Assembly (NCBI GenBank): GCA_973895155.1
Contig: OZ316891.1
Location: 18,409,987-18,473,986, forward strand
Source: Marsupella aquatica
Taxonomy: Eukaryota; Plantae; Marchantiophyta
Direction: 5' to 3'
Length of the DNA: 64,000 bases
The notes beneath the pieces are model-generated. The model did not search any database. It saw nothing but the letters and a program-made list of their open reading frames with translations, and was not told the DNA's origin. Below, piece after piece: positions 3,101 to 48,722 of this stretch (positions are counted from its first letter, which is position 1; every line of letters begins with the position of its first letter). A program made the position numbers and the translations under genes.

Positions 3101-4379
3101 TACTCCCAGGAAGCCGAAGGCTGGCAGAGTACTCAACGGTCTCCCGAACGGTGAGAGTCCCGAGGAGCTCGTCTGTTTGAGTCACATAAGCCTGCAGCCA
3201 GAGACGAGGTCAGAATGTATATCAGCCCCACCATCGTGACCTCCATCGGGACCTGCATCTCTCGGCCATGACATCGATCGTCGAAAGGATGTGATATATC
3301 TAGAGCCAACGAAGACGACGCTGGTGTGCGTAGTAAGTAGAGCCGAGGGAACTTACGGCAATCCCGAAAGAAAGGTTTGGCGACTTTCGCCCATTGAGCA
3401 TAACCTCGCCACTTAACCTGGCATTCCTTGCAAGCCGTCCTGTACGTTTACCCATCATTCCATTCAATTATACACAAACCAGCTTAATCTATAAAACAAA
3501 GTAGTTACAGCCAAGAGCACTTCAGTTGATTCACATTTGCTAAATCGTACGTGTCTCAATTATCTTATTCAAACATCGACATAAAAAAATTAATTGAACC
3601 CATCGTTGTCTTTCGTTTCAACACTAACATCTGAAAGCTCAGATTTGAGACAGAATTGGTTTGAGAGGACGAGCACACAAGAAGGTAATGCTCGAACGGT
3701 TCCTTACAATCCGCTGGACTGTATCCATGCAAAGTAGCTAACAAGCATGCACCTCCATCATAAGGTTCGGAAGGCAAAGATATGGGAAGGAAGCACCCTC
3801 ATAAATATACATTGAGAGGGCCCAGACCACATAACGGAGTTAGTAGGAGGATACTTTAGATGACTACATGAGCAAGAAAATACCCGCGAGAGAGTCGAGG
3901 AGTGTAGATTTCCCTGAGCCTGAGGGTCCCATGATCGCTAGCATAGCACCAGGCGCCGCAAAGCCAGTGAGACTGTGGAGCAGAACTTGGTCGTCAGCCT
4001 TGCCACCTTGAGCAACTTCGACCCATAGATCCCTCCATGTTAGTCTTGCTGACATGTCGATATTTCTTACTCCAGCTTCTCTTTCCGTCATTTTCATGTT
4101 GCACTTCCACACAGTCTCACTTAGAGGGCTCATCCCTCGAAACGGGCCAATGTGCCCTTTCACACAACCCTGCACTGCTTTGTGGTGCCCTTCCATACCG
4201 GTCACAACGTAGTGACCATTTCCGTTTTTATGACTCTGTTCATTGCCGTTTCCGTGGTGTTTGCCTCCATTTATGTGGTCGTGCCTATCTCCATTCCCGT
4301 AGCGTCCATTCCCACTTCTATGTTCTTCGATACCGTCTGCTTGTTTCGATTCAGCAGCCTCTAGCGGGTGCCCATCCAT
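144..4379 (-). CDS. ABCG11-like: ABCG (WBC) half-size transporter, ABCG11/WBC11-like; multi-exon, 3' part continues off the left edge of the window
   Basis: Walker [13 protein letters not shown], signature [12 protein letters not shown], Walker [22 protein letters not shown], and [16 protein letters not shown] region [18 protein letters not shown] and [19 protein letters not shown]. Exons read with GT-AG boundaries: 4379-3884, 3439-3357, 3191-2902, 2749-2578, 2346-~2230, ~2036-1905, ~1609-1415, 230-144. Confidence 0.93.
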
Positions 4380-14959: not shown

Positions 14960-17900
14960 GAGATATGTACTTAGTGGACCTCCAAATGCAACTTTTTCTC
15001 TTAATGGACCAAAAGTTGCACACGCCTTCCAGTGGACCCCAACATTTAGATTCTCTCCCAATGGACCCCCGAGCCCACTCCGTACATTCAAGCATGTTCT
15101 TCTGAAACACCTTACCACACAGTTAAGGTCCACTACGTACCATGTGGACACCGTGGTTGGTCATGTGTAGTAGGCCATCAATAACGTTGCAGTCCACAAG
15201 CATCGTAGCCCTTGCCGCAATTGAGCACCGCAGCACCATGGCTTCCTAGTTTTTGTGAATACAATATGACTATTGTATTCAAAACTACAATAGCCGCAAT
15301 CTAGAACAATTGAAAGAATACAACATGGTCAATGTATTCACTCTACACATGCAATGACATGTCACGATTCTAGGTTGCGTCTGCTTTGCTAGTTCATCGT
15401 TAGGGATGAGGGCACGATCATTTGCGCATGCATGCCTTCTCTTTGGCGAGGGTTTAGGATTTTAGGTGGCCGCCGATAGGAATGGTGATCGAGAGAGGAG
15501 GATTGTTTTAGGGATTTGACTATTGGAGACCAGGCAGCTCGTAGACGGATCGAAGGCCTGTCAAGCTGGTGAAGGGAGACTACGAAATGAATCGGGATTG
15601 CCTGTCGGGCAATTTGGAGTGAATGCACAGTGATTCAAGGAGATCAACAAGTGCCTGCCTTGGTTGAGTTCAAAACTCACCATCTCTCGTCCTGCAAAGA
15701 AACCACAAAAATCGAGCAGCACCAGTGGGAAGAAGACGGAAGGTGTATCATGGATTCGTTTGAGGTCTATTGCAAAGCTAAGATGGCAGATGACCAAGCA
15801 ACGAAAGAAGAATCAGCTCAAGGAAGACTATTGTGTTTCAACTTTGGGGAAGAGTGAGCCATCTATCCCATCCAAATCGATCCTTGTTTGTCTGATTAAG
15901 GTGTTCCACATTCGAATCTAGGAGAAGAAGGGTTGGGGCTGCTTGGTAGACAAAAATTTCTTTGAGATGTTGGAGGAGCATGTGAGCTCTGCTCCTATCA
16001 CCAATGTTGTCTATCACTCGTGCAGTAGTTGCCTGTGGATCAAAAATTGTATGCTTTGCAAGTCGATTGTCAAGTATTACAAGTACTTTTTCCAAAGAGA
16101 AATGTTGCTGCCCAGTCTGGCCAACCTTCAACAGGTCAGGAGAGTAGAGAAGTCGTTGTCTACCAAACTTTAGGTTACTTTGAATGACAGAGCTCAAGCC
16201 AAAGAATCAGGGTAGAAAGGAAAGAAACCCAAGAAGCCAAAAGAACCCAAAAAGTAGCCTCCACAAACTGTTACGCCTCTTGTTGACACTCAGTAAGCCG
16301 ATGAGGTAAAATTTGCACTTCCAATGTAAGTACCCCATTTGTATACAATGATATCAATGTATGCACGATGGTTTAGTGCTCTTAGCCCGAATATTGCATT
16401 TTAGGTTCCTCCCAATAAAGAAGCAAAAGCCGACCAATCAAAGCAAAAAACAACAAAGAACCAAGAAATCTGCAGAGCCACATTTGCCCACACCGAACGA
16501 CAATACCACCCTTCCTGTAGATTCTCAGCAAGCTGACCAGGTAACATTTACTGATCAAAGATCTTCTCAACATCTAGTGTGGAGAATGTTTTCTCTTTTA
16601 CAACACTACAAATTCAAGAGTATGACATTATGTTGGGGTTGCATACCATGATGTTCATGTATACTTAATGTTTGAATGTGCTTGCACCCGAGTACTGCAT
16701 TTTAGGTTCCTGAATCCAATGAAGGACCTAAACTCGACCAAATTAAGAGGACATCAACAAGAACCAAGAAATTGGTACAACCAAAGAAGCCCGCGCCTGA
16801 GGTAACCGTCTTTTCAATAGGCCCGAGAGGAACATTCCACAGTACTAGACATAGTGGTAAATGTATTCTATGTGCAACAATACTTATTTGATTTAAACAT
16901 CCAATAACCTTTCTCGTAACCTTTGCAATTACAGGTTCCAAAGGAAGGAGAGCAGACAACGGCAACCGCAGAGACGGAAACAAGTCAACATAGACGTTCA
17001 AAGAGGAAGCAAAACATTGCTCCCGCCCAAGAGAAAATTGCTGAAACAAAAAAGATGACCAAAAACAAAACCAAGGTAAGTACAAATAATTACTTACCTT
17101 GGTACTCGCTGGCCATAATATATAGGGACTAAACACATGATTGATTTTATACTTATTTATGCCTTACAATTGCACGATTCGTTTGAACAAGCGGAGGATG
17201 TCGATGCTCAACCAGGACCAGAGGGAGGCAGCGCTATTGATACTGAGGGTATTGCCCTTCCACCAAATGTGTATGCAATCCCATTAGGAGAGGTGACTAC
17301 ACCGGTAGGGGTGAGCTAATTAATTTTGACCGGTGGCTACGATTCATTGGTAAGATATGTTTGTTTGCTGATTGCTTTTATATGTGAATTGGCAGGAGTA
17401 CTAGAAACTACCTGATGTGCAACCAGACCCATATGCAAGTAGACGTCGGACTAAGTCAATAGTTTGTGGGCCATTGTGCAAAGTGAATTTGTAATCCCGG
17501 GTCTGTATCACAAGAGGTCACTGTGCTAGAGGATGACATTTTGGATACCTTGCACGCATCACAAATTCACCAAGACTGCAGCCAGGCTGATGTTAGCTCT
17601 TTCCGCAAGGCAATTAGTGGTGGACTTCACCACCCAGCGCCCTCACCAATCCCAACACTCACGCCTGAGTGCCCTTGGTGCCCGAATGCCTCCACGGAAT
17701 ACCTCAAGCAAGCAACCTAGTGCCCCTTTGCACCGCCAGCGGCCCCGCCCATACGAAGCCGCACTTGCTCTCTAACACGACCGCTACTCAATGGTCCTCC
17801 CTATCTGCACAAGCAACCAAGCACCTCGGTAAGTAACCCTTCAGGATCTAGAACTCGCCAAGTCTAGCATCCTAACTCTTGAGCTCAACAGACGTTGGTA

Positions 17901-20459
17901 AATAGGTCAACGATAGGTCCTCCCGATGCCATAAGCCCAAACTAGAACCCACGTCCACTGTTCGTCCAGAATAGCTTCTTCCTTGGGCGCGGCCCGGTTC
18001 CCCCTCGTACCTATCCATCACCAATTGACTGCCCTGACCTCAGGACATGCTCATGGCCCAAATAGCGTAGCTTATCCTAAAGCTTGTCCCAAGACGCCGA
18101 GACCAGAACGGTCCCGACTCTAGCAACCGCTCCCGGTTTGCCCCACTGGTGGTCTAGGGGCCAAGCACCCTTGGAACTCAGCCTCCGCACATACTTGGCC
18201 TTGCCTCCCCAACGCAAGCTCCCTTGGGAGACTGAACGCGGCTTGGCTGCTATTCGGCAGGATTTGGCAAGCGGGCGAGCTAACACCCACAAACCACGAG
18301 AACCCATGACACCCCTTGACCCATTTGAGCTCAGGAAGACGTAGCCCTCCTCAAGAGCTTTCCAACGCACCCAAGAAGTCCTCCAACGGACTTCCCGTTG
18401 GGGAGATATCGCCATTTCTGTTTGACGGTTTTTCTTAGTGTTGCGACCGCCGCGGCTCATGACTTCGGCTCGGCCTTAGCCCCTCATATATGCTTCTAGA
18501 GACCTGCCACCCCCTGACCAGCTTTGGTCCCTAAACATTTGGCCCCCAACCCGGATCCCATTGCGCATAATGGGCGCGCCACCAACTGGCAACGCCCATA
18601 ACTTTCTTGATAGGCATCCGCAAGCGGAGTGCCTTAGCCCGTTGTGACCGGGCCGACCCAGTGCTCATGCCTAGGCCCTCAGGTCTGATCGCCGCTCGGG
18701 GCCCATAATCGGCCCAACCCGGATCGGGCCACAACTTGCGCCCCAAGCGTCCGTTGCCAATTGCGTCAACTCCATTGACCTTGGGCCCAAGAGGAGCTCA
18801 CTCCCAAGCCCTCAGAAGTCAAAGTCCATTCGAAGGTCCGGACGGCCATCCTTGAGCCCGGCCCATTTCCCCTTGACCCGACCAGCCATAGGCTACTCCA
18901 AGTCCTTAGTGTGTCCCCAGCTTGGCCCCTTGCCTCGCTAGTGCCACGTCTCATTGCCCACAAGTCTCCCATGCTAAGTCCTCCTCGGATGGCCTGGACC
19001 ATAAGGGAGCTCGACGCCGGAGCTAAGTGTTAAGGTAGTCGAGTTCCGTGACTCAATTGATATAAGCATGAGTAATGTGGATGAAAATTAGGGTACAGTT
19101 AGCAATATCTGACGAATAGTTTAGGGTGTCTAGCCCTATTTTGTCACCAATGTGTTTGTGATAATAAATATGACATGTTGTTTCATTTCTTGCTCTCTTT
19201 GAAGACTGTACAACATGATCTGTTTCAGGGATCTGTTCCAAAAATGGTCAGAGTAGACAAGAATGCCGAAACCATGATTGGACGGTATACATGCCACACA
19301 ATGTATTCATTACTCACACTTCAAAAATGGTATTCATGACTCCGCAACCTACAAATGGACAAACCATTTTTACCTTGGATATATAGTGGACATTGTATTC
19401 AAAGTTTGCACTTAAACAAAGTCAAGACTCCCCTACCTTACATACAGGCAACAAGGCTTGCTATAATGGACAAAAGCAAAACCTGTTCAACATAGAAATC
19501 GATATATGTGTGTTTTGCATACAATATGCATGTTGTATTCACATTTCCCCCGTCCTTACAACGAAGACACCCCCTTGCCGAAGCCTTCCCAAATGGACAA
19601 AATTTATCGTATTCCAACACAAAAATATAATTTGTCATGTATACACTTTGCACGTTGTATTCAAATTTCACACTTAGAAAAAAAATTTGTCCCTCTAACT
19701 TTACGAACTTGACGCCCCCACCAAAACCTGCCCAAATGGACAAAACCTATTGTATTTCAACATAGAAATATGATTTGTCATGTATACACTTTGCACGTTG
19801 TATTTAGATTTCACACTTAGAAAAAAACTTTGTCCCTCCGACTTTACGAAGATGCCCCCCCCCCCGCCGAAGCTTGCCCAAATAGACAAAAACTATAATT
19901 GTATATTACACACATATATGATTTGTCATGTATACACTTTGCACGTTGTATTTGGATTTCACATAGACTTAGAAAAAAACTTTGTCCCTCCAACTTTACG
20001 AAGACGCCCCCCGCCAAAGCCTGCCCAAATAATCAAAACCTTTTGTATTACAACACAGAGAAATGATTTGTCATGTATATACTTTGCACGTTGTATTCAG
20101 ATTTCACACTTAGAAAAAATAAAATTCCCTCCGACTTTACAAAAATGCCCCCCGCCAAAGTGACGGTTCATGTTTGTATGCATTGTGGTCAATGTATACA
20201 TGCGGGATACATTGATTCACTAAGAACTGCGATCGTAGTCGACCACATTCGGCGACGCGGTCAAACACTGAAGAACAGTAGAACATGTTGCGTTTTATAG
20301 TGACAATCTCGCGTTATAAGAACTGCACAATGTGTTAGAAGAACATCTCACACAAAATGGCACCTTTGGTGGGCCCAGAGGTCCATTGGGAGGGCGTGTG
20401 CAACTTTTGGTCCATTAAGAGAAAAAGTTGCATTTGGAGGTCCACTAAGTATATCTCTC
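14960..20459. mobile_element. Non-autonomous Mutator-like element (MULE), 5.5 kb
   Basis: Long TIRs start GAGATATGTACTTAGTGGACCTCCAAATGCAACTTTTTCTCTTAATGGACCAAAAGTTGCACACGCC (14960-~15040), with the reverse complement at ~20380-20459. Perfect 10-bp TSD CCTTTGGGAC at 14950-14959 and 20460-20469. No MuDR transposase motif recognised inside. Confidence 0.93.
19480..20160. repeat. ~145-bp subterminal tandem array (~4.5 copies) inside the MULE
   Basis: tgtcatgtata(c/t)actttgcacgttgtatt...cttagaaaaaa recurs at 19633, 19776, 19924 and 20069. Confidence 0.9.
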
Positions 20460-21272
20460 CCTTTGGGACCCTCACTCCAGGTTTAACCTTTTTGCCCTTT
20501 GGCAGTGTGATATATATCCATCCACTACAACACTATGGCCCTCTATTGCGAACCGGAATCCATCGCAAACAACAAAGGGACACAAAAAATAAAATTGTCA
20601 CTTGCGAACCAACCCGCATCGCACTTTCCCATGCCAAGTCCTTTGCAAACGGACCTTCGCAACTCCATCGCAACTTTCAAAGCTAGTGCTTTTGCAAAAC
20701 AAACGCAACATTGCGATTCCCAAATCTTCCCAAAAAATGCCATTTCGCCACCATCGCCCACGTTGCGACGCAAATACGCTCGGAGTTTTTTCAAAGCAAC
20801 ATTGCTCGCACGTTTGTGAGCAAGTTTGTCTCGCAAAGTTGCGATATTGTATGGCTTTTAAATTTGCGATTAGTATTGAATCACTTCATTGTGAATCTGG
20901 GACAATCTCAAGATTTGCGATTGTTAAAATATCGCAATATTTGCAACATGTCTGTGGACGCTTGTTTTGTGATGAAAATATTCTCTGAAGTTGTGAAGGG
21001 ATGAGTGTCGCAATTGGTTCGCAAAAATGGGAAATCTTTGAAATTGGTTTGTAATTCCAGTTTAGGGTTCAGGCTTAGGGTATGAATGGAATAGGCCTTG
21101 TATGGAAGGCAAAATGGAAGGCAAAATCCGGAATAGATATGAAATTAATCAAAATGTGCAAAATTTACAAAATGTAAAGGTGCTAACCCTTACCAAAGGG
21201 GCATGTCAAATGCATGGAACATATAAACCCTAACTACGGGTCTAAACCACTAAAACCTGCCACCTAAATCCT

Positions 21273-23360
21273 CTAGAAAGGGGACTTCCTTCCCTTGCTT
21301 GCCTTCTTCCCCTTGGCCTTGTCCTTCTCTTTCTCCTTGCCCTTGCCCTTGCGGGTTTGCGCAGGGGGCGGTGGGACCTCCTCCTCCTCTTCCTGGTCAT
21401 CCTCCTGGTCCGCTTCCTCATCCCCCTCCTCATCTCCATCCTCCTCCTCCTGGGCTGCTGCACTACCGGAACCACTACCACGGGCTGATGCAAAAGATTG
21501 GTCTCCAGTGCTAGTGGGCCCGGCACGACTACCAGGAGCAGTGCTCAAATCCTCCTCGTCGCTACTAGCAGTGTCACCCTCCTTGTCAGAGGTACTATCC
21601 CCCTCTGGTGCCTGCTTCCACACAAACCAAAGGGTACCAATTAGTGGCTTGCCTTTAACCTTAAAAATGTCTTCACAATAATCTGTATCATGAATGCCAA
21701 GGGTCCAAAAATGTGAAAAGGCTCACCAACAACTCGTCAACTTGCCAAAATAGAGTCTCCTTTCCATGCTTCTGCCCCACCTCCATTTCTGTTGGGGTGA
21801 TCTTCCTCCTGTACTTCTTGTACTATGCATCATCAACACCCGCAAAAAACACCCGCAAAAAGAAGAGGAACAGCAAGGCATTAGGCCACATTAAACCTCA
21901 AATCATGTAGGTAGGAAATGTTGGGGTGGGTTTAGGAGGGTTATGGTGGGGGCCAAGGTGTTGGGGCCTTAAGGGCCAAAACTTAACATTAAAAAAAAGA
22001 CCGTTTTTGAATTTGCAAAGCCCATACCTTCGCAAAAAGCAGCATGATTAGGTTTGCAAAGCTGGTTGCGATGCGCGTTGCTTCACAAGTGCTTCGCAAA
22101 ATCTCCCCAAAAAATATTAATAATAGTGTTTGCAAACATGTTGCAAAGCAACACGCATCGCAAACGCTTCGCAAACTCTGTTACGACTCTGTTATGTCCA
22201 ACCCGAGTGTGCACGACCTAAAACGACTTGTAAGGTTCAACAGTAACTACTTACTAGCAAAAAGGAAACAATCGGGAGCCATTGCAAATGTCTTGAAACA
22301 AGAATTGGAGAAGGAAGGAGTGAAGGGAGGAGAGGGAGGCACTCACGAATGCTGCCTTGAGGCCGAGGAGGCCACCTTGACCAAGCCTGTGGGTTATGTT
22401 GGGCTTCTCCTGGATGCGCTCAGCTGCCTTGAGGAATTTCTTGGGCGGATCGCCGACATTTGCCACAACCTGCTGGAGTTGGGCCACCTTTTGCTCCATA
22501 GTTTTCAGGTCACGGTCAGACTTCCCGGCCTCTCTCGCCTTCTGGGCCTTTGCTAGCTTCTCAATGAATTCCTTGAGGAGCCTGGTTGCTTTGAGCTTCA
22601 CCTCAGTCTGGTAGAAGGCGTTCCAGACATCCTCAGAGAATTGCAGCGGCCGCTGTAGATTTATGTACTCCTCCAGGTCTCTCAGGTGAGCTATGATCTT
22701 CTTCCTATCGTGGTATCTTGCTTGGGACATAGAATTGCCAATTTTGTCTGCAAGCCATTGTGAGTCAATCTCTCCTCCATTTCAAAATGCATCCTTCACT
22801 TGATTCATGACTCGCCTCTGCTCTGCCTTCGAAACACTGCCCCACTCAACCCCTCGAGCAAAATTGGTTGACACAATGTGCCTGATTGTGCTCTTTGCCC
22901 CGAGATAAGCCAGCTCTGTTGGAATTCCTTCTTCTTCTAGAGTAATCAGGGGCAGCTTCTTCCTGGCCTCCTCTGTCTTTCTCTGCTCTTCCCCTTGCTT
23001 CCTGATCAGGTCTCGCTCTTCCTTCCTTCTCTTCTTTTCCAGGGCATGAGGGGAGAGGACACCGGCCTTCGCCCTCTCATCTCTCTTCCTCTTCTTCTCA
23101 ATAGACTTCTGCTCCGCTGCCTTCTTCTCCTCCTCATCCCTTGCTGCGTGCCCTGCAATCATACCAAATTGCAATGCCTGGCCTAAAATTGCACTCAATG
23201 ATCCCAGCCCTGCTAGTGTGGTCAAATCCAGTTTGCTCAATTGTGCCACGGAAAAGTGCTTGTCCACCATCTTCTGCAGTTGGTCCTCCCCCCCTCTGTT
23301 ACCCCCATTGCTACCAGAAGCTCCATCACCTCCAGCACTACCTCCTTCGCTCGCAATCAC
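21273..23360 (-). pseudogene. CACTA ORF2 / TnpA-like accessory gene, transcribed divergently from the transposase; one in-frame stop
   Basis: Exons 23360-22347 (TGA at 22782-22784, frame continues), 21822-21727 and 21659-21273, joined in phase 0 by GT-AG introns. Features: coiled-coil K/E region, W-rich helical segment, HRLGQGG motif reminiscent of Ptta/En/Spm ORF2 (Transposase_24), and an acidic/basic tail. Confidence 0.7.
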
Positions 23361-24935
23361 TGTGCCTGCACCCTAACCTTCGCTCTTCCGATGAAAAAAT
23401 GCACTCTCCCGGCCGTTCCGCGCTCGGGATTCATAAGGGTCAATGGAGATAGGGTTTGTGAAACTCTACGCATCTCAACTTGCGATGCAGAACCTTTCGC
23501 CAAAAGCATCGCAAACGCCTCCATTTGCGAAGTTATTTTGTTCACAACGAGGTTTTCGCATGAGATTGCGAAGATGTTCTTCTCGCACCCATCACGTGTG
23601 AATTTGAATTTTGAATTAAGGTGGGGGGTATACTTAAGCGGGTGTATAAGTGATAAGACTAATAAGCTAAGGTATGTAGGAGGGGTTTTAAGGTTGGAGG
23701 GATATGAAGGATGGTGTATCCTATTGTTGTTTGAGATTATGGCCAATTTAGGAGAGATAAATGATTTGGGTTTGTTTGAAGTAAGGGTCTGATGGTAATT
23801 TTGGAGGGTGAGACCTTGGCTTTGGCATTGGGTACTAACATATGGTAAGAGGGATTTGGCATGTGAAGTTTTGGTCATTTAGGAGGGTAAGAGGGGTTTT
23901 GGCATTTGCTCTTTACAGGAACATAGGAGGGCTTAAGTGGTGAGGGTTTAGGGTCAGATTATGTTAATTTAGGAGGGTAAGACCCTCGGCTTTGGCATTT
24001 ATGGTTTATGGTAACTTATGAGGGTAAGAGGGGGTTGGTGTTTGGATGTTATGCTAACATAGGAGGAGAACATAATATATAAGATGCAGGGTGACCATTA
24101 CTTTGGTGGATTTTGACAAATGCATAGGCATTGTGGGAGCTTGGGCATCTGAAAGGTACAAGGTGTATGTATTGGTGTGGTTTTGTTTTTCATTGGACAT
24201 ATATACTTTGGCAAATATATATATATTTTTAGGGGCCCACAGTTTGGGGTAAAAGAAGCATTGCAACTTGAGTTGCATACAGTTTTTCCCTCCTACTCTT
24301 CGATATGGTTTTTTGAACCATAAGACTATTAGGCACTATTGAGCCCAAGCTCCATAGAGGTATTTTCCATACTTCATTTGAGGTTTACAATTTTTAGGGT
24401 TTTCCAAGGGTCTAAAGTGGTTCTCTTCTAGAGTTGTTGAAGGGAGGGAATTGAATGAGTTTTTCTCTGTTTGGGTTTATCCTAACAAATGAGGGAAAAA
24501 ATCTATGCTTACATGATACATTGCAGGCCATCAATTTCCTCAACTTTTGAGTAATGTTAATGCATATGCATTGTGGGAGCCCGGGCATCTGCAAGGTAAA
24601 AATATATACTCTGTAGGGTTTTTAATGTGTGACCTATTTTTTCATGTACATGTATATATTTGGGGACCAACAACTTGGAACAAGTTAGCTAATGATTGTT
24701 TTAATGCACGTTATATCTGTAGTTTTTTCTTCCTACTTCCAGATTTGGCTTATTTTCCTTGAGCCACATGACCTATAGGCACTGCTGAGCTGGGGTCCCA
24801 TACAGGTATTTTCTATGTACTTGAAACTTATTTTTGGACCTCATTTTTGGAATGGTTGAGTGGCTTCAATTGTTACCTAGAAGGTTGCTAGTTGGCCTAT
24901 ATTATGCTAATCATGTTGTACCCTAAATTTTGCAG

Positions 24936-25171
24936 TGGATATATCTTCCTCCTCAGAACTTTCCAGCAGTGACTTCTCCTCCTCTGATGAGGATATACCA
25001 CCTCCTCCTGAACCTGAAGTTACCGGTCCTCCTCGTGGTCCACCCCGACAACTCTGTCAATGCACCAGATGTGTGGGCCAAATTTCTCAAAAATCTTATG
25101 TATGTGCTCAACATATTGAGAGATATGGCCGTCATAGAGGTCTTACTCCGGGGGCTTCTTCATCCCATATG
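24936..25171 (+). CDS. CACTA exon encoding an acidic/Pro stretch plus a transposase-associated Zn-finger-like motif
   Basis: TTGCAG acceptor ending at 24935. Encodes CQCTRC-x13-H-x3-YG, like the CPCxxC...HL..G transposase-associated domain. Donor ATG|GTGAGT at 25171/25172 (phase 0). Confidence 0.7.
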
Positions 25172-25269
25172 GTGAGTGTGTAACAATACTTTGCTATTTT
25201 CTCCTCATATTCTTACAAGTGAACCAATGTTTACACCTATGGTTGTTTGTGGGTTTTTGGATGAAATAG

Positions 25270-26100
25270 GGATCCAACATGCGTAGAGTGGTGACACCAC
25301 CACCCTATGTCCCATCACAAGGGGTTCTAGATGCTATAGGAAATGCACTTTCACAAGCCTTGGGTGTAGGGATGAGCACCATTCATGGGGAAGAAGAGGA
25401 ACAACCTCAGGTGCCTAGTGGGACACGAAGACCGCGGTCCAGGCCCGAGTCCAGGAGGAGGCCACGAGCGCCCACTGACCCATCCAGAACACTTGTTGAG
25501 GGTAGGTGGGGTATATGTGAGTTCACTGGCAAGTGTGCTTCTATCATCAAGATGTGGGATGCCTCGACTCTTGGCTTGCCATATTTTATAGGTTTTGATG
25601 AGGAGGTTGGGGTTTGGGGTAGACGTTGGGTTGTGAAGGCTTCGACGCTTGGAGAGAGACATGGCTATGGGGTTTTTGCTTGTGAGGACATCATTGTGGA
25701 CGATGTGAGTGGGTCAAGTGTTCGTGGTAGAGAGGGTCCTACTTTGTTCCCATACGGTGGACCCATCTACAAGAGAAGACACTTGAACATGATCCTTGCA
25801 CAACATCCTGAGTGGAAAACATATGCCTTAGAGATGGATACTTTTGATGGTAGCACTAGAAGGTATAGTGAACAGCGAGTGATAGACGGTGACCCCATAC
25901 GTAATGGGAATATTGCTGGCTTCATAAATAGTACTGTGGGGAGTCGGCCCAAGCGTAGGGCCAATTGTGAGTGAGTTTTTATTGATGGTCCAATGTCGGC
26001 ACCATATGGTGAGAGATATCATAAGGACCATTGCTTAGTTCTTGCTACTAGGACCATTAGAGCTGTCGATGAGTTATTCACACACTACGAGTGGGATTAG
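25270..26100 (+). pseudogene. SET-domain (lysine methyltransferase-like) exon embedded in the CACTA transposase gene; one premature stop
   Basis: SET motifs in canonical order: STLGERHGYGVFACEDI, PYGG, YALEM, IDGDPIRNGNIAGFINST..ANCE, then TGA 25972-25974 (probably from TGG), then VLATRTIRAVDELFTHYEWD* ending at 26100. TAG acceptor at 25267-25269 is in phase 0. Confidence 0.85.
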
Positions 26101-26342
26101 GCTGCCATGTCATCACCTTTGCCATATTTTGTACTAGAGACTTACCTTTATGTATATGGCCTTGGCCTCATTTTGGAGTAATACATTTAGGCCTCATTTT
26201 GGAGCAATACATAATTTACTTTGTATTATTTATGTTTATGCAAATGTTTTTACCTTAAGTTACTTAATTTTTTGTCTAAAGTATGTATTACTTTACCTGG
26301 TAAATCATACATGAAGAGGATTTTTGGTTGTATTGTCCATAG

Positions 26343-29300
26343 AATGCGCAACCCTCTCAACAAATATTACCACGAAGGTTGAGGGTAGCATATCGGGAGA
26401 TGGGTATGCCAGCAGAAGGAGAACCATCAGATGCTGATTCCTCATCAAGTAATAATCCAAGTGATGCTGATGAGGAAGAGACACCCCAAACTGATGACCA
26501 GGTCATGCATGACCAAGACAGAGCCATGGATGACTTCATGGTTGATTGGTTTGGTGCTGATGTTGGGGATGGTGTCCATGACATTAGTGTTGAAGGAGCT
26601 GCCCCCCAAAATGACCCACGACCACAACATACTCCTGAGGGACAACAACAATGGAAGGAGGCTGAGGAACATGCCCGGACACCTATCTTTGAGGGTGCTC
26701 GGTTGAGTCGGTTGTCAGCCATATTGGGGTTGTTGAACATTCAGGCTAAACATAAGGCAAGCAATTCTATGTTATCAGACATATTTGAATATTGTCATGA
26801 CCTGATGTTACCTAGTGAGAATGTGTTGCCAGGAACCTGGAAGGATGCAAAAAAGATTCTCTCATCCATTGGCATGGATTACCATATCATTCATGCGTGT
26901 GTGAATGATTGCATGTTATTTCATGGGGACAAAGCCCATGTCATAGTATGCACCGTGTGTCATGAGCCACGGTATGATCCAAACATGCTAACCCAGAAGG
27001 TGCCAAGGAAAGTTGTTCGTTGGTTCCCCATTATTCCTCGCTTGTTGCACATGTATAGATGTTCTAACTTGGCCGAGTTGATGGTATGGCACAAGAAGCA
27101 TCGTTCAGAGCTTGGTGTGATGCGATTACCAGTTGACTCTCCTGCTCATAAACATGTAGAGTCAACATGGCCAGATTTTGAGCGTGACCCTCGGCATGTG
27201 CGATTGGGGTTGGCTTCAGATGGGGTTAGCCCTCATTCACTTGGGGGGAAGGGGAGGCCTACATCGGTTTGGCCAGTGGTTCTCATGAATTACAACCTTC
27301 CACCATGGTTGTCCATGAAAAAGGGCTTTTTGTTGTTATCTTTGATTATCCTAGGGCCAAAGAAGGTGAAGAACATGGACACCTACATGGCATTACTGGT
27401 TTAGGAACTCCAAAAATTATGGGAGGGAGTGTGGGCATATGATGGTCGAAAGATTACAGAGGGTTTATCACGGGTTTTCAAACTGAAAGGGATTTGTATG
27501 TGGATCATGCATGACTATCCAGGTAAGAACTGTTACACTCTAGTACTTACTTATTTAATTTCCATCATATGAGGATGCATGGTATTATTTTCTTTTCTTT
27601 GTCAATCATAACACAATCATTTGCTGATGTATTTTTTGGCAGGCTTTGGTTTTGTCAGTGGGTTGCAAACCCAAGGCTACAAAGCTTGCTCCACTTGTGG
27701 CCCATGCCTTGGTGATATAGCCAAGTACTCATCGCACCTTCACAAGATTATTTATCTTGGGCATACAAAATTTCTCCCAATGGGACATGCAATGAGGTTT
27801 GATCCACTTCTATTTTCCTCCATTGATATGCTGCTTGGTGATGAGCGTGAAGTACCTGAGCCAACAACTTTTGCACACTGGAAAGACTTGGCTGATAGAG
27901 TGGCTGACCCTGAGGATCCCATGCAGTTTGAGGGTAGTGGGTTGACAAGGTGGAGTACGTATTCTAACCACTTTGCCCTATTGGGGAGAATTGAAGATCT
28001 GTCATCTATTAGATCCCATGCACATTGAGGGGAATGTGGGAAAGGCATTGATAAAAGCTTTCTATGGAGAGAAGGACACTAACTTCAGGGAGGCTTGTGA
28101 GGATCTTGAGATGCATCCAGATGTGTGGGCGACAACTGATCCAGTTACAGGGATGGAACACCGACCATCAGCTCCATGGGTGCTTCCTGTTGGACAACAA
28201 AGGGAGTTTTGAAATTGCATAGGAGACATGAGGTTTCCTACCGGTTATGGAGCCAATCTTCGAAAGGCTTTTGGGATGGAGGACAATCATAAGTGGCCAC
28301 GATATTTGAAGACACATGACTACCACCGACTATTGCAACATATATTGCCCGTGGCAATACTAGGTTTGGCAAGTGAAGAAGTGCAAGATGCCCTTTGGTC
28401 ATTGGGAAAACTATTGAGATGGATATGCTCAAAGGAGATTTATAGTGAGGAGATCCCAGGGATGAAGGTATTGGCTGTAGAGGTGGTGTGCAAGTTGGAG
28501 AAGGCCCTCCCTCCTTCCTTTTTTGATTGTCAAGTGCATTTACTTGTTCACCTTGTTCATGAGGTTGCCATTGCGGGTCCTGTGCATTGTCGGTGGATGT
28601 ATTGGTTGGAACGATACATGACAATTTTAAAGGGATATGTACGAAACCGTGCAAGAGTTGAGGGAAGCATGGCTACAGGATATTTGGCAGTAGAAAGTAT
28701 GTTTTATTGCAGCAACATATTAGCCACAATAGATTGTACCTCTCCCCGTACTTGGAACGAGGAGAGGGAGGATGAAGTGGATCGTTTGACAGGGGCCACC
28801 AAAACCCGCATGTTGACACCCATGGAGTTGAAGCAACTGAGTACATTCATGTTGAGTAACAGCACTATCATGGAAGAATGGAGGAACTTCTATGAAGAGG
28901 CCAAAAGTAACAGTCGGAGGCCAAGGATCTTTCCCAAGTGTCATGACTATATGAAGGCAAAGCTAGTTGAGGTGGATGACATGGTGGCCAGGGGAGAGAG
29001 TATATTACATTTTCCAACCATCATAGATGATGTCCGTACCATTATGCATGGTCCCTTGAGAATTGTAACATCAAGGACAGCAATGTGGACACAAGGGAGG
29101 CATTTCAGGTGATTGATCCTACATACCTTACTAACCATCCTCTCTTAATATTTTTGTCAAACGTGATATTAGTTATGTATATTGGAAATATATTTGTGGT
29201 GTATTATGTTAAAATTGTAATATGTTTGCATCTATTTTTTTGTAACATGTCCATATGGTTTCACTAAATTTAGGATTTCTTCCCTTGATGAGAAGAGGGG

Positions 29301-29787
29301 TCGTACATTTGATTGTGGAGTTCAAGGACAATTCTCTCAAGATTCTCGCAGCAGTCGTCACGGCAGATATATTATTCGAGATGTTGTGCCACATTATGGA
29401 AAAATAGAGGAGATCCTAGTGGTATCATATGATGCATAGTCAAAGTTTCAACAGTATATCTTCAAGTGCAAGTAGTTCAAAGTGAACCTTGCAGGTAACA
29501 ATCCCACTGTGGTTCAAGATGAGTGTGGATTTACACGACTCAAGACGTCTGCCACTAGTTTCCAGCCATCGCACTGGCAAACATCAAAGCCATTTACATT
29601 TCCAAGCCATGTGGAGCAATGTTTCTATATTCCATACCCCCCAAACCCAGAGGAGTGGTCACTTGTCATCACGTATGTGCCACAATCTCGTTCTATTATT
29701 GGGGAAAGGCCTGATGTTATGGTTGTGTCCCGCCTGATGAGGATGTGGACCAAGAATGAGGGATATGTATATTATGCGAATATATAG
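26343..29787 (+). pseudogene. tnpD: CACTA TnpD transposase (Transposase_21 + DUF4218 + DUF4216-like), disrupted
   Basis: IHACVNDCMLF, CTVCHEPRY, WFPIIPRL, RLGLASDG, WPVVLMNYNLPPW, WIMHDYPG, LDPMHIEGNV, LKTHDYHRLLQ, FFDCQVHLLVHL, RWMYWLER, EGSMATGY, DECGFT, VEQCFY. Introns at 27523-27642 and ~29109-29272. Stops at 27402, 28210 and ~29440-29475, plus a frameshift near 27965. Confidence 0.95.
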
Positions 29788-29979
29788 TGATGCCAATTCC
29801 TATCATTGGATTCATATTTATGATGATTTCTCTGTCTTCTTTGTTGAAGATATATTCATGTGCATTTGTGAATTGATCATGTCATTTTGAAATGTCATTG
29901 ATATACTCTAAACCCTAAACTCCATGCCTCCACACCTTTTGCTAGACTTTGTGTTATGACAACTCATGCTACTTGTACT

Positions 29980-30830
29980 CTTTCTCCTTCCTCCTTTCCT
30001 TGACACACCTCCTTTCTCCCTAAATCCCTCTTTCCTTTTCACTCTCTTAACCTAAACCCTGGCTCCTTAATTTCTCCATCATATATATAATTATATACAT
30101 CCTCCCTCCTTCCCTCTGGCTCCTTTCCTTGTCCAAAATCCTTTCTCCCTCTTACCTAAACTGACCCTCCCTAACTTGTCCCGGCCTCCCTCCTTTCCTT
30201 GTCTCACCCCCTTTAATCCCTCTTAAGTACCTATACTGGCCCTCCCTAACTTGTCCCTCCAACCTGCCCCATCCTTTCCTTGTCCCACCCCCTCATCCCT
30301 GTACCCTAAATTCATGGCCCACCCTCCTCCTTCCCCTTCCCTCACTTCCTTGTCCCATCCTGGACCCTTACTTTCTTCCTCTTACCCATATATAACCAAA
30401 CTCCTTCCTCCCTCCTTTCCTTGTCCCAAACCCTTTCTCCCTCTTACCTAAATTAATTGGCCAACCCTCCTCCTTCCTCCCTCTTTTCCTTTTCCCTCCC
30501 TCCTTTCCTTGTTCCAAGCCCTTTCTCCCTCTTACCTATATTAATTGGCTAACCCTCTTCCTTACTCCATCTTTTCCTTTTCCCCTTCTTGTCCCCCGTG
30601 TCTCCTTAATTTCTCCCTCTTACCTTGCCTATACCCTCTTTCCTCCCTCGATTCCTTGCATCCCACCCCTTTCTCCCTCTTACCTATATACCGGCCTTCC
30701 CTAAATTGGCGCACCCTCCTCCTTCCTCCCTCCTTTCCTTGTCCCAACCGTCCCCTTTCTCCCTCTTTCTCCCTCCTACCCTTGTCCCTCCATCGTCCCT
30801 CACTTGGCCCATCCCTTTTTTTCTCCTAAA
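29980..30830. repeat. Degenerate CT-rich (polypyrimidine) repeat tract in the CACTA-1 3' region
   Basis: Recurring cctcctttccttgtccc / ctttctccctcttaccta units. Confidence 0.8.
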
Positions 30831-31559
30831 TTACCTTCAATGTCACTTATTAATTTTGCGAACTATTTTGCGAACAAGATTCCTTTGCAATACCTTCGCT
30901 AAACATTTCCGATAAAATAATATTTGCAACTTGTCCATTCCCACATCCTCGCAATCTTGCGAATCAACCCGCATCATAAATTTGCGAACCGTATTTCATC
31001 GCAAGCATTGTTGCCAAAGTCGGCATGATATTGCGATATTAGTCTCTTCGCATAGTTGCCATACATTCATGTTCGCAAACTTGCGATAGAATGAGTCTCA
31101 CAAAAGTCCGAGCGAGGGCTGATGACTCACAAAAATATTGAGGGTATTAAGATCGCATAGTAGTTGCGATGACGAACGATTCACAAACGCGTCCGAATGG
31201 AAATGATATCGCAACATGTTTGCAATTAAGTAAGCACCGCAAGCATTTGAGATGGATTCCGCATCGCAAATTGGGGTTGCGATGCTATTATGATCGCTAA
31301 TTGAGATGAGTTATTGCAAAGCGAGCGATGGACAGTGTCTTGCAGGGCGTTTCAGCGCAACTAAATCGCCTTCGCAAAAAGGCCCAATATGTAGTAGTGA
31401 TCTTGGATACTTTGGTGGGCACCAATCTAGAATTTCACTCTTTAATAAGTAAAAGAAGATACCTTACAGGAATGCTCCAAAGTATCGTTTATATATAGAT
31501 GACATCTCGTTCATAGATAACTTGATAACAATGGCAGAGATCATCCCATCTATTTTGCA

Positions 31560-33174
31560 AGTAGACTCCTAGCTGCTGCTAAAAAGAACTATTCTGCTAC
31601 CGATCGAGAAGCTCTAGGGATAGTCTACTCGTGCAAGAAGTTTTGACACTACTTGCTGGGCTACAAGGTAGTATTTCACACTGACCATAATGCTCTGAAA
31701 TATATGGTCAACAAACCTGATTTGATTGGGAGAGTGGCAAGGTGGATGCTACTACTCCAAGAATTTGACTATGACATCCGGGTGCGGCCAGGTAAGCAAC
31801 ACACAAATTATGCTGATTTTTCCTCCAGGATTGAAGGACCAGCAGATGAGAAGGTGATTGATGATCAATTCCCTGATGAGGACTTATTCCAAGTCAATCT
31901 CAACCCGCCAACCTGGTATAAGGATATCATCGATTTTCTATCCTCGGCAAGGATGCCAAGGGAGATGAACCAAGAGGTTGGTGCTGTCTTTTTGAGAAAG
32001 ACCAGACCCTACAGGCTGATCAAGGGAGTGCTACACAAGGAAGGAGTTGATGGAACGATCAGGAGATGCTTGGAGAAGAAGGAAGTAGAGGTAGTGATAA
32101 GAGCTTTACATGAAGAAGAGGCCAGAGGACATTTTGCAGCAGCAACCACATCAAGGAAGGTCATGGATGCTGGTTATTGGTGGCCTACTTTGCACAAGGA
32201 TGTTCAGTTGTTTATCAGGGCTTGCGACCCCTGCCAACGGACAGGTAAACCAGCTTTCTCGCAACATCATCCTCTTACTCCAATTTTGCCTCTAGCTCCT
32301 TTTGAGAAGTGGGGTATTGACTTCATTGGTCCAATCACCCCAGTCACTAAGAGTCGCAAGAATAGATACATCCTACTAGCTACTGATTATGCTACCAAGT
32401 GGGTAGAAGCTAGACCAACAGCAGGGGACGATGCCAAAACAGTGGCCAGATTTCTATATGAGCAGATTTTCTGTAGATTTGGACCACCCTTAGAACTAGT
32501 GAGTGATCGGGGGACCCATTTCTTGAATACAACTATCGAGGAGCTTACCAACCAGTATTGGGTGAAGCACCAAAAGACCACTCCTTATCATCCGAAGGCT
32601 AATGGTCTGACAAAAAGAGCTAATGGAATCATTGGCAAAATTCTCAACAAGACGGTGGCATCTCACAAGACTGATTGGGACGTCAAGCTCTATTCGGCGG
32701 TGTATGCTTACAACCTGGCCTACAAGACCACAACAGGTCAGACGCCATACTTCCTGGTTTTTGGACAACACGCTCTTGTACCGGTTGAATTTGAAGTGCC
32801 TTCCTTGAGAGTCGCTTTGGAAGATAGAATGCCGGCGGGTTTAAGTCTAAGGGAGAGAACATGCCAACTGGAGAGATTGGAGGAGACTAGGGAGCATGCC
32901 AGCGAGCGCTTGGAGCATCAACAGCAGCTTGCAAAGAAATATCATGACAAGAAGATCAAGCCCACCCCACTACAGACTGGTGACTTGGTCTTGCTATGTG
33001 ATTCTCGCTATGTCCATTTCCTGGGTAAGCTTCATACTCGCTGGTTGGGGCCATACAATGTGCATACTGTTTTTCAGAATGGCTCAGTCCAACGTACTGG
33101 CAACATTGGAGGGTGAAGTTTATCCAGTCAGGGTACACTTTGATCGGCTCAAGAAGTATCACATGGGAGTTTAG
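31560..33174 (+). mobile_element. pol: Ty3/Gypsy pol fragment: RNase H C-terminus + integrase
   Basis: KNYSATDREALGIVY, HTDHNALKY, RVARWMLLLQEFD, HHCC zinc finger (H...GHF...YWWP...CDPCQ), DDE core (WGIDFIGP, SDRGTHF, YHPKANG), GPY motif. Stop at ~31645 and frameshift near 33090. Confidence 0.93.
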
Positions 33175-46314: not shown

Positions 46315-48722
46315 TCAAGGCAAAAGAAGCCTGCCTTCTTTGTGAAATTTAATTTCGGGATAGGTTCTCTGTCTTAGAAGACTTGCGTTCGCCCCATAGA
46401 GTGGGATGCATGTCTTCCGCTTCAACCCGCTGTGAACTGCCGCAAATTCAGATACTGGATATCTAAGCACCACATCTAATGCCTCCTTCAGAGCATGATT
46501 CCCATGTCTGCTGTCAAACAGATTCACGAAACACAACTTGGGCAACGTTTCCAGGATCTCCACTATTGTATTGGCCATCGTCGTGGCTGCACAGTGCCCG
46601 ATTTGGTTGCCCAAAAGATTAAGCCATTCCAGCTGCGGCGCTTGTCCCTCACCTAGAGCTTCAAGAATTGCCAGCATTCCATGGCGAAGCCTGAACTCAG
46701 TCCCAATTTCACAGTATCCCAAGTTAAGCCGTCGGAGCCCTGAAAGATGCCCTGCTTGAATTACCCGCGATAAGGCCAATGCTCCCTTCACATTCAAAAT
46801 ACAGATAAGTTAATTAGACAATATATAGAGGTGGCAGCGAATCCGGTGGTCGGCTGGTGGAGATTTTTCTGAATGACCTTTAGCTCCCTTGTACAGCAAT
46901 ACTTCTCGACCTACGGTGAGGCACATCACGAAATGTGTGGCTTAAGAGTTATTACAGTTCTTTAACGAATTGAAACCCGAATGTAGAATATACGCGTGCA
47001 ATAATCTTGAACGACGTGTACCTGATCTTTGAACTTGTTCCACGATACGTCTAGATGCTCCAAATTGCATAACTGGCCAGACTCGAGTCCTTGCATAAGA
47101 GTCTCCATCTGCTCTCCATCAATGCCGCACGAAGAAAATCTCAAGTTTTGGAGTAACACCAAATTTCCGTCTTCTATTAGCCTCGCCAGCGCAATGCTCC
47201 CCGCGACGCCGATAGTGTTGCACGAAATATCGAGAGTTTGCAGGTTTATTGCAGGATTGCAGTGCAAAGCCCTCGCTAGCCCTACCGTGCCGTTTGATCG
47301 TAGCAACTGTCCCTTTATGACGAGCTTCTTAATTTGGGTCATATGTCCTGCCTCAAACAATCTGTGTACATCTGACGCCGTTGGCTCCTCGATTGGATCC
47401 GTGCCTGCAAGTGATATGAGTTTTTCTCCAGAGTCAATGATTCTGCGTTTGATTGGATACTTAATGAGATGGCTGATTCACAACTATCTACACAATTTCA
47501 GCTTTGCAGTCAAATTCATAATTGGTAATCTCCGTCGTACTGAAGGTCTTCACCTGAGAGAACCAAGGCTTTCAACTGCGTAATCTTTCCTTCATGGATA
47601 GCATCCGCAATCTCCCCAATATTGCATCGTGGCAAGCCAAGGTGTTCTAAATTTGCGAGCCGGCCGGACTTCAGCGCCTTAATAATTGCAGCGTTTCCCT
47701 CATCTGTGAAAGTACAGTGGCCGGACAAATCGAGGAATCGTAGGACCGGCAGATTGCCGACGGTTAGGAGTTCTGCCATCATGGTGATAATCTTCTCGTT
47801 TTCGAAGAGGCAGCCGGAAAGGTTGAGTACCTGCGATAACACTCGCAACACGAAAACATCAATCATCACCAGCCGGGCAGATTTCCAAGAATTAATCAAT
47901 GACGTATCTAAACACTTTCTGCAAAAGTTTGTTTCTCAGTCTCCAAGGAAAAATCTCTCAGTTTGGAGGAGTTCTCGTCATAAATGATCAACTTCTGCAA
48001 CTTTTCTTGATCTGAAAAATCGCCAAATTATATATATTCAATGGCTAGTGCTCTATCTATTGCAGCATTGTACTGCCATGGTAGGATGGGCGGGCTCGTC
48101 TATTAAAGTAACCTATTGGTCGTCTATTCAAGAACAGCTCCTAAGTTCTATTCAAGAACAGCTCCTAAGTTCAGGAAAACTCGGACAGATCTATCATGCT
48201 GCGCATTTTAATTCGGATAGTGATCAATTCACGCCCATTCTTATAATGTTGAGGAGGGGCTTGAACGTTCATTTTTCATACGAAGGTCATTGTTCTATTT
48301 CCTGTCGTGATTAACCGTCCTCTATGCAGAATCCAGGAAACTCGGTAAAACAGATTTGTGAATCGTTATTGGGAAAAGCTTTGCGGGAGGGATTCCAATC
48401 TTACTTGTAGTCTGGACAGGTCAACTTCCCTCATCGCCGCTATAAGGAGAAGCAATTGCGGATCCCCGACTGTCCGCTCCCTCTCGTGACCTGTATAATG
48501 CAGGTCAATGCACTCGCTCTTCTCCAGCTCATTCAGGATGGAGGAGATGATTTCCTGGATGACATCTTGGTCTTCGTCTGGATTAACCTCCCTCAGTTGG
48601 AAGAGGCTCTCTTTCAAGACCGAGATCCCGTGCTGGCGTGGGAACCCCATGGCTGCAGAAAAGCTATAAGATCGCATCGACGGCTCGCTGGAAGAGCGAC
48701 TTGGCTGCCGTTGAAGTCCCAT
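46315..48722 (-). CDS. RNI-like (ribonuclease-inhibitor-type) leucine-rich repeat protein, ~482 aa, 4 exons
   Basis: Exons 48722-48405, 47830-47554, 47404-47022 and 46785-46315 join in frame (1449 nt). Repeated LxxLxLxxCxI/NxI units with GxxxLAxxL helices (LQTLDISCNTIGVAGSIALARLI, LEHLDVSWNKF, LRRLNLGYCEIG). Confidence 0.85.

Follow-up and report, generated by a model that had tools for sequence, protein, structure and literature searches.

A SET-domain exon under purifying selection in the predicted first intron of a bryophyte-type CACTA transposase gene

A CACTA transposon of the liverwort Marsupella aquatica carries a SET-like exon inside its transposase gene, and the question raised by this locus is whether the exon is a passenger or a part of the element from which a methyltransferase would be made by alternative splicing. 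The window analysed here is a stretch of 64,000 nucleotides (assembly GCA_973895155.1, contig OZ316891.1, positions 18,409,987 to 18,473,986 of the forward strand). The element is complete, occupying positions 20523-31399, with CACTA at 20523 in the left terminal inverted repeat (20523-20552, plus strand), TAGTG ending at 31399 in the right terminal inverted repeat (31370-31399, minus strand), and a flanking 3-bp target-site duplication, ATC/ATC (20520-20522 and 31400-31402), in agreement with the initial annotation, which had described a duplication-bounded CACTA. Loci L006, L013, L028, L038, and L042 have related ends with differing flanks; at L028 the duplication is ACA/ACA and the right end is TAATG.

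The plus strand encodes a TnpD transposase in exon 2 (26343-27522; phase-0 start, Transposase_21), exon 3 (27643-29108; remaining Transposase_21, DUF4218), and a last exon (29274-29760, 3' end approximate; weak DUF4216 match), with Pfam matches for Transposase_21/DUF4218 at E values of 1.8e-27, 2.4e-8, and 3.4e-33. The TnpD of the window copy is broken by stops at 27402 (27402-27404), 28210, 29437, and 29473 and by a frameshift near 27955-27964; the copy is a dead member of its family. A divergent accessory ORF on the minus strand (22254-23372), with one internal stop at 22782-22784, is conserved in the family, being present at 11 of 14 loci and having a dN/dS of 0.16 against locus L032. Its product is highly Lys-rich, has no Pfam family and no usable atlas match, and gives a poor structure model (pLDDT 55); a likeness to TnpA, judged by eye, is backed by no computed result. 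The divergent ORF may also include an acidic ORF at 21273-21722.

The SET exon (25270-26100, plus strand) lies, as first annotated, between the finger exon and TnpD on the same strand, and comprises 276 codons, encoding a linker, an N-terminal extension, and a SET domain (approximately 25624-26088), followed by TAG at 26098-26100, which agrees with the end first given for the exon. Every motif named originally is present: G132-Y-G134 (GxG, 25663-25671), Y162-G-G, IDG, GNIAGFIN220-S-T (Asn220, 25927-25929), ATRTI, and DELFTHY273 (Tyr273, 26086-26088). An in-frame TGA at 25972-25974 is private to the window copy, the codon being TGG in all 29 loci that cover it. The window exon matches the Pfam SET profile (PF00856) with an E value of 2.9e-4 and 21.7 bits, just below the 22.4 cut-off, and matches at E≤0.1 were obtained for 36 of 45 homologues, the best at 7.5e-8. 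Structure prediction used P0010, a homologue 77% identical to the window copy, and gives a SET fold with pLDDT 89 and pTM 0.84. The best Foldseek match of the homologue model is SETD8 (E 2.8e-7), VIA Z scores are 11-12 to EZH2, COMPASS, ASH1L, and SETD8, and SET7/9 and ATXR5 are also among the fold matches. The ranks of this predicted fold are ties across unrelated SET classes and point to no substrate or mark. A single-sequence PDB search gave 0 matches, and the A2 profile gave only matches at E>1; the best PDB sequence match is Legionella LegAS4 (E 0.0035). A homodimer prediction of finger-SET with SAM and Zn, which used no alignment, scored 0.00 and speaks neither for nor against the dimer. 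Both a SET profile match and a predicted SET fold were found.

Aligned homologues keep most of the residues expected of a SET enzyme. The GxG glycines are kept in 162/171 and 166/173 aligned rows, the Asn of the NHS motif in 186/199, the Glu and catalytic Tyr of the ELxF/YDY-type motif in 160/161 and 152/155, and an aromatic residue at Tyr+2 in 122/130. The His of the NHS motif is replaced by Ser in 175/198 rows. The reading of NST in place of NHS as a sign of a decoy had weak grounds, because the His is missing in other SET proteins: LegAS4 reads NFS and PRDM9 has Cys. The missing post-SET segment casts stronger doubt on activity than does NST. The tail after the catalytic Tyr is short, with a median length of 3 residues and no more than 4 in 54 of 94 homologues, and a Cys cluster occurs in 0 of 94, bearing out the initial annotation on this point; in the available text of PMC3178901 a very short post-SET is proposed as the cause of inactive PRDM constructs. 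Because the post-SET is missing, we do not class the SET product as a proven enzyme. With a pI of 7-9 in the close clade, the SET core lacks an acidic character and differs in this from the histone groove, which the same text describes as electronegative (PMC3178901). SETD8, LegAS4, and giant-virus SET proteins likewise have a SET fold with neither a Cys-rich pre-SET nor a Cys-rich post-SET, and LegAS4, like the SET exon, is without the His of NHS; identity to these proteins is 16-29%, too weak to indicate origin or substrate, and the SET exon differs from these minimal enzymes in having an N-terminal extension and inserted loops, and its C-terminal tail is almost absent.

The exon belongs to the family and does not evolve neutrally between families. 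Relatives with the order finger, SET, TnpD occur in Sphagnum, Calypogeia, Riccia, and metagenomes: TnpD is downstream of SET in 22 of the 27 loci whose downstream sequence reaches 300 nt or more, and the finger is upstream of SET in 19 of 22 loci. Riccia gene models fuse SET to Transposase_21 in the same order, with SET identity of 32-44%. At L034 the finger and SET are present and TnpD is not recognisable within 350 nt; at L025, L035, and L036 there is no TnpD and the SET match stops early. The dN/dS of the SET core against the window copy has a median of 0.21 over 33 loci and is 0.27-0.29 when the window copy is excluded from the comparison, as compared to 0.11-0.18 for TnpD. We conclude that purifying selection acts on the SET core between families, with a strength near that of TnpD. 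Individual copies undergo neutral decay, biased toward C>T/G>A changes, and any protection from methylation is therefore not lasting. SET is intact in 11 of 22 copies and TnpD in 1 of 9, numbers that are small, refer to different lengths, and are not taken as evidence. CAK9871772.1 (P0003) is an example of an intact natural finger-SET protein. The family is abundant in the sequencing runs examined.

Exon 1 (24941-25171, plus strand) encodes a Ser-rich start and a CxCxxC-x13-H-x3-YG finger resembling Transpos_assoc. In the window copy its start codon is ATA (24941-24943), with G at position 24943 in 4/4 sequencing runs; the codon is ATG in 19 of 20 related loci, and the median dN/dS of exon 1 is 0.05. 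The window finger has no Pfam match, Transpos_assoc (PF13963) falling below the cut-off, and the finger of relative P0146 matches at E 0.031, also below the cut-off; the likeness consists of spacing and weak profile matches. TnpD relatives without a SET exon (P0100 and P0102) have an N-terminal CxCxxC-x13-H finger, as in exon 1, with the spacing in P0102 the same. Comparison by hhalign of the exon-1 finger with the fingers of SET-less relatives gives 93.8% for fragments picked by Cys pattern, and exon 1 matches a profile built from SET-less fingers at an E value of only 0.17.

A single donor following exon 1 is in frame with two acceptors. The donor (ATG|GTGAGT, 25171/2), the near acceptor (ATAG|G, 25269/70), which ends the 98-nt intron A (25172-25269, plus strand), and the far acceptor (CATAG|A, 26342/3) are all phase 0, as first proposed for the joining of this donor to both the SET exon and TnpD. 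Intron A has GT in 20/20 loci and AG in 25/28, and the far acceptor has AG in 22/23. In L033, with SET identity of 31%, the finger exon, donor, near acceptor, stop, and far acceptor are all present, all in phase 0, and the first Met is approximately 60 codons past the far acceptor. The score of the L033 distal exon against the window TnpD start is reached by 20/1000 shuffles, and against four other TnpD starts by 46-297/1000, which is only suggestive that the L033 distal exon is TnpD. A conserved LPRRLR..YRE precedes the first shared TnpD Met, and 12 of the 19 residues encoded by TnpD codons 1-19, before that Met, are kept, 5 via different codons; the dN/dS interval for these codons extends to 1.3. 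The intron sequence beside them, in the AT-rich gap, is not alignable between families. Because phase 0 is conserved to 31% identity and the pre-Met codons are kept while the intron is not, two isoforms are likely. Because, in addition, the same finger starts SET-less TnpD, the sharing of exon 1 by SET and TnpD is well supported on comparative grounds.

Among 54 gene models and ORFs carrying the end of exon 1, 35 continue into the SET exon and 0 into the far acceptor. Among the joints listed for sequencing-run contigs across introns (X1-X4; X1, X2, X5, and X6), neither 25171>25270 nor 25171>26343 occurs, a result that says nothing on expression; a joint matching 29108>29274, the last TnpD intron, in X3 and X4 was not counted, the sequence between containing unknown letters. 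The AT-rich gap (26101-26342, plus strand) is predicted to serve as the 3' UTR of the SET isoform and as the 3' end of the long intron, terminating in the distal acceptor CATAG. AATAAA is absent from the gap in 4/4 families, and TGTA shows no clear enrichment in it over other introns. The internal donor CAG|GTGCCT (25408-25416, plus strand; 25410/1) exists in the window copy as reported, but is not a family feature, because GT is present in 1 of 29 loci and base 25410 is mostly T by depth in 4/4 sequencing runs; we do not count it in the system.

According to the explanation that we favour, tentatively and at somewhat less than even probability as a whole, a bryophyte-type CACTA keeps a selected SET exon in the first intron of its transposase gene, makes two proteins, and uses one of them as an active anti-silencing methyltransferase. 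Splicing of exon 1 to the near acceptor would yield finger-SET, a predicted lysine methyltransferase helping the element resist silencing, and splicing to the far acceptor would yield finger-TnpD; the finger would bring the SET form to chromatin at or near the element. The parts of this explanation differ in strength. It is quite probable that both junctions are used and moderately probable that the SET form is catalytically active, and the SET form ends rather more probably by poly(A) in the gap than by a long 3' UTR run-on. If the SET form is active, the balance tips slightly toward finger-delivered action on chromatin at or near the element. The anti-silencing activity of En/Spm TnpA, as described in the available sources, supports this explanation. 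Of the original proposal, an element-encoded SET protein tethered by a transposase N-terminus, the family exon, SET fold, selection, and predicted shared exon 1 stand, and the internal donor falls away. Two of the three conditions under which that proposal would fail, no SET match and an exon confined to this copy or evolving neutrally, were checked and neither held.

Two other explanations concern gene structure. Passive capture, in which a host SET fragment is carried along neutrally, could account for the broken window copy and for a SET pN/pS of 1.07 among private changes in the peat-moss-type family, but is extremely improbable: TnpD decays alike within that family (0.85-0.95), a dN/dS of 0.15-0.3 between families contradicts neutrality, the exon persists in the same position at 31-44% identity, and no close host SET gene was found. 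Two tandem genes, with the finger only on SET and with TnpD on its own transcript, starting at an internal Met and having no finger, would fit the absence of models joining exon 1 to TnpD (0/54), an MGMP start found both in the window copy and in the peat-moss-type family (the latter with a further Met at codon 8), and the alternation of Arabidopsis Spm families between splicing and split genes described in the available text of PMC13547354. This arrangement is nevertheless quite improbable, given that every family examined has its far acceptor in phase 0, L033 with its late first Met among them, that a 5' UTR intron would have no need to keep phase, that pre-Met residues are conserved, and that the finger is the TnpD N-terminus in SET-less relatives.

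Two further explanations change what finger-SET does. With the same two isoforms, finger-SET could act off chromatin or without catalysis, methylating or binding TnpD, the divergent-ORF protein, or a host silencing protein, or serving as a SAM- or lysine-binding decoy. The tied fold matches include SET7/9, an enzyme with many non-histone substrates, and the absent post-SET, the Ser at the NHS His, the neutral to basic SET core, and the Lys-rich divergent ORF all point the same way; yet the GxG motif, the Asn, the catalytic Tyr, and an aromatic residue at Tyr+2 persist from family to family, LegAS4, whose solved structure includes an H3 peptide, also reads NFS, and SAM is held in SET domains by backbone atoms and the Asn side chain, according to the available text of PMC3178901. 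We consider this explanation rather unlikely. Finger-SET could instead be an active enzyme but a brake, through a repressive mark or through competition with TnpD via the shared finger, in negative autoregulation by splicing. Use of the near acceptor, the gene-model default (35/54), removes transposase; copies show a methylation-type mutation bias; the H3K27 enzymes EZH2 and ATXR5 are among the fold matches; and, in the sources available, transposable elements are H3K27me3-marked in some lineages. Against a brake, the tied fold ranks are silent on the mark, the family is abundant in sequencing runs, and the accessory proteins of plant DNA transposons characterised in those sources (VANC, TnpA) are activators; we regard a brake as distinctly improbable.

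The favoured two-protein explanation has a counterpart in En/Spm of maize and Arabidopsis ENSPM3/7, in which, according to the texts available, alternative splicing of one gene yields both TnpA and TnpD (PMC13547354; bioRxiv 10.64898/2026.08.24.746577). The element resembles En/Spm in its CACTA ends, 3-bp duplication, Transposase_21/DUF4218/DUF4216 content, and predicted second product from the same transcription unit. It differs in that the second product is a SET-fold protein and not a transposase-derived DNA-binding factor, that SET is nested in the first TnpD intron with the N-terminal finger predicted to be shared, and that there is a separate divergent accessory ORF without a Pfam match. 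SET cargo has precedent inside the EnSpm/CACTA superfamily, unmentioned in the initial annotation: the available text of bioRxiv 10.1101/2025.02.11.637652 describes PAG2 of red-algal Plavaka as SET (PF00856) cargo and a proposed chromatin modulator. In that description PAG2 stands as an accessory gene of its own, with SET fused to an N6-adenine methylase, whereas here the exon is inside a land-plant transposase gene; no methylase family was found on the SET proteins or scanned element ORFs, and the PAG cassette (methylase-SET PAG2, PAG1, PAG3) is not present in them. Among DNA transposons with a SET gene, the HarbingerS and MuDR families of Phytophthora and proto-Helentron-Pi (PMC12730594, PMC4067079) differ from this element in superfamily and host; in the Helentron, SET is an intronless ORF of its own, and exon sharing with transposase is not described in the available text. 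VANC of VANDAL (MuDR) is likewise an element-encoded factor proposed to act against silencing, but is, in the sources available, a sequence-specific DNA-binding regulator with a demonstrated effect, whereas the SET exon encodes a candidate writer enzyme. A SET exon nested in a transposase gene was not found in the literature surveyed, which, as far as available, also contains no functionally tested transposon-encoded SET protein, the known cases being in oomycetes and red algae.

A broader version of the favoured explanation, doubtful as it stands, is that a land-plant CACTA lineage, which owes part of its spread among mosses and liverworts to horizontal transfer, assembled a histone writer aimed at its own chromatin from a finger and a minimal prokaryote- or virus-like SET, with 3' splice-site choice deciding between "mark my chromatin" and "jump". 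The SET cargo described here comes from land plants, and its hosts have tractable models among their relatives. Because many intact natural copies exist in such hosts (a 360-member cluster), the writing of histone marks by a transposon on itself is directly testable, and the finger-sharing layout provides a concrete targeting hypothesis. In Sphagnum, 6.8% of the genome consists of CACTA elements (PMC9946827). In the annotations of Sphagnum, Calypogeia, and Riccia, many gene models named "SET domain-containing" probably represent transposon cargo, which would make chromatin genes look more numerous than they are.

The CACTA element in the window is complete (20523-31399), with related termini and an ATC target duplication. 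On the + strand, the finger exon (coding exon 1, 24941-25171) is followed by a 98 nt intron (intron A), the SET exon (25270-26100), an AT-rich gap of 242 nt, and, from 26343, the TnpD (transposase) exons, which match Transposase_21, DUF4218 and, weakly, DUF4216; a divergent ORF occupies 22254-23372 on the - strand. The window copy is dead, because its start codon is ATA (ATG in 19/20 related loci), codon 235 of its SET exon is TGA (TGG in 29/29 relatives), and its TnpD carries four stops and one frameshift. The divergent accessory ORF (in the window with a possible further part at 21273-21722, also -; 383-1615, -, in metagenome locus L032) is Lys-rich and largely helical, is conserved across families with a dN/dS of 0.16, has no match in Pfam or the atlas, and is possibly a new TnpA-like factor. 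A second TIR element, marked by a 71 nt inverted repeat pair (14960-15030 / 20389-20459; 96%) that encloses ~5.4 kb of exon-like stretches and 143 nt repeats, ends 63 nt left of the CACTA, and a Gypsy-type RNase H and integrase ORF (31647-33116, +) lies a short way to the right of the CACTA. Elsewhere lie a 32 nt inverted repeat pair (57585-57616 / 60019-60050; 97%) that is probably another TIR element, a tandem array (54884-56828) of ~393-412 nt units, each containing a hairpin-like inverted repeat, an ORF with an NSD-like PHD finger (62519-63199, +; PF22908, E 2e-9), and ABC transporter exons and a leucine-rich-repeat ORF (2727-4442 and 46962-47477, both -) that are probably host genes.

The initial annotation recognized a SET domain within this element, and that observation is confirmed; the interpretation it offered is partly supported. 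Pfam SET is matched by the read-through SET exon at E 2.9e-4, just below the cut-off, and by 36/45 homologues (E<=0.1). A fold model of P0010, a natural homologue with 77% identity, built from an alignment of 33 rows, reached a pLDDT of 89 and a pTM of 0.84; Foldseek ranked SETD8, LegAS4 and MLL1 at the top (best E 2.8e-7), and VIA gave Z of 11-12 across ~120-135 residues, with EZH2, COMPASS, ASH1L, SETD8 and SET7/9 tied. Giant-virus SET proteins match with similar E-values, and the atlas is in agreement. Because the fold matches are tied across SET classes, neither subfamily nor substrate can be read from them.

Across 249 aligned, non-independent rows, the GxG glycines, Asn, Glu and catalytic Tyr are almost fixed, and the His of NHS is replaced by Ser. 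The resulting NST had been proposed as grounds for a decoy. SAM is reported to be bound through the side chain of the Asn together with five atoms of the backbone (PMC3178901), and PRDM9, an active enzyme (PMC6917776), has Cys in place of this His (PMC6054832); LegAS4, the top PDB sequence match (E 0.0035), has Phe. Since neither protein has the His and PRDM9 is active, NST need not mean a decoy. The real doubt on activity is the absent post-SET: past the catalytic Tyr, the median tail is 3 residues long (94 proteins scored of 112 with a full core), and short post-SETs are tied to inactive PRDM constructs in PMC3178901. Nor is the SET core of the close clade acidic. We predict that finger-SET is fairly likely to be catalytically active.

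The SET exon characterizes a family and not this one copy alone. A word-based search returned 49 homologues, the closest named proteins being from Calypogeia fissa and Sphagnum species, which makes a bryophyte host likely. A profile search (E<=0.001) returned 165 clusters (50% identity); in one of them, finger-SET and SET-only models together number 360, and the 15 members listed include named ones from five Sphagnum species. In the 42 metagenome loci examined, the order finger-SET-TnpD recurs: TnpD lies downstream of the SET exon in 22 of the 27 loci with >=300 nt downstream, the finger upstream in 19/22, and the divergent ORF in 11/14. Among the loci missing a part, three have a SET match that ends early; two, L033 and L034, are diverged beyond tblastn reach, yet their finger was found by pattern. 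One locus, L028, holds a full-length element from a second family, flanked by a target duplication distinct from that of the window, and three Riccia gene models have SET sequence fused to Transposase_21. Remote SET-family members, transposon-borne or domesticated, occur in Ginkgo (P0221, Gb_21150; gymnosperm) and Adiantum (P0244; fern), and also in Calypogeia (P0168 and P0178). The dS between the window family and peat-moss-type loci is ~0.7-1.4 (SET core and TnpD), and the window element represents a family distinct from the peat-moss-type family. In a SET-core tree of 65 of 112 sequences (near-duplicates removed; window part 25492-26097), window, Calypogeia and Sphagnum cores, including P0002, P0096 and P0003, form one short-branched clade (100/97), with the Riccia lineages far away. 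The moss-liverwort split is very ancient, so this short-branched clade hints at horizontal movement of the element between bryophytes.

Transposons reported to carry a SET gene include HarbingerS and MuDR of Phytophthora (PMC12730594), a proto-Helentron (PMC4067079), and Plavaka, of the EnSpm/CACTA superfamily, where the gene is PAG2 (bioRxiv 10.1101/2025.02.11.637652). The production of two Spm products by splicing is classical (PMC13547354; bioRxiv 10.64898/2026.08.24.746577), and 'SET domain' occurs 0 times in the main text of either of these two papers; 'methyltransferase' is absent from the main text of the Sphagnum genome paper (PMC9946827). No SET exon in a bryophyte CACTA is described among the titles and abstract openings listed; subscription journals, Repbase or supplements may hold one.

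Between families, the SET exon evolves at a dN/dS below 1. Of 42 loci tested, 35 had 60% cover and 33 gave a value (two were saturated), with a median SET-core dN/dS versus the window of 0.21; the values were 0.11, 0.18 and 0.13 for TnpD segments, 0.05 for the finger and 0.41 for the linker, all pairs sharing one branch and so being non-independent. With the window excluded, L003 versus L001 and L002 gave 0.27-0.29 (upper bounds <0.45). Private changes within the peat-moss-type family are neutral (pN/pS 1.07 for SET, 0.85 and 0.95 for TnpD). This combination indicates selection on the transposing lineage rather than on inserted copies, and so counts against passive capture and also against a family of domesticated host genes. 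The private changes are biased towards C>T and G>A, and show that element copies do become methylated eventually.

The predicted shared donor (25171/2) is GT in 20/20 loci, the near acceptor (25269/70) is AG in 25/28, and the far acceptor (26342/3) is AG in 22/23, reading CATAG|AAT likewise in L003. In L033, where SET-exon identity is down to 31%, the same parts recur with every junction in phase 0 and a long intron of 1176 nt, vs 1171 nt in the window. The first 19 codons past the far acceptor lie ahead of the first Met common to both close families; 12 residues are kept, 5 via different codons, and the adjoining intron does not align (355/500 shuffles score equally well). The LPxxxRxxY motif of the TnpD start also occurs in L033. 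The internal donor (25410/1) is private to the window copy, not a family feature. AATAAA is absent from the gap after the SET exon in four families; a poly(A) switch is therefore just one option for ending the SET transcript. P0115 (Logan contig of 2.1 kb; 423 aa) has finger and SET in one protein, and is a spliced transcript or else from a family without intron A.

SET and TnpD may be two separate genes: among 54 proteins carrying the exon-1 end, which are single-isoform predictions retrieved with SET or exon-1 queries, the end continues into the SET exon in 35 and into the far acceptor in 0. The SET-less TnpD proteins P0100 and P0102 start with the same CxCxxC-x13-H finger, so TnpD here without exon 1 would miss its usual N-terminus. 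Finger-SET may instead act on a non-histone target or as a decoy, or its role may be repressive. Most likely, exon 1 is transcribed from a single promoter; splicing to the near acceptor would yield a finger-SET protein of ~350 residues, and splicing to the far acceptor would yield finger-TnpD. By analogy with TnpA and VANC, we infer that the finger would target the SET domain to DNA of the element or to the transposase complex, and that the SET domain would there methylate lysines favouring expression or access.
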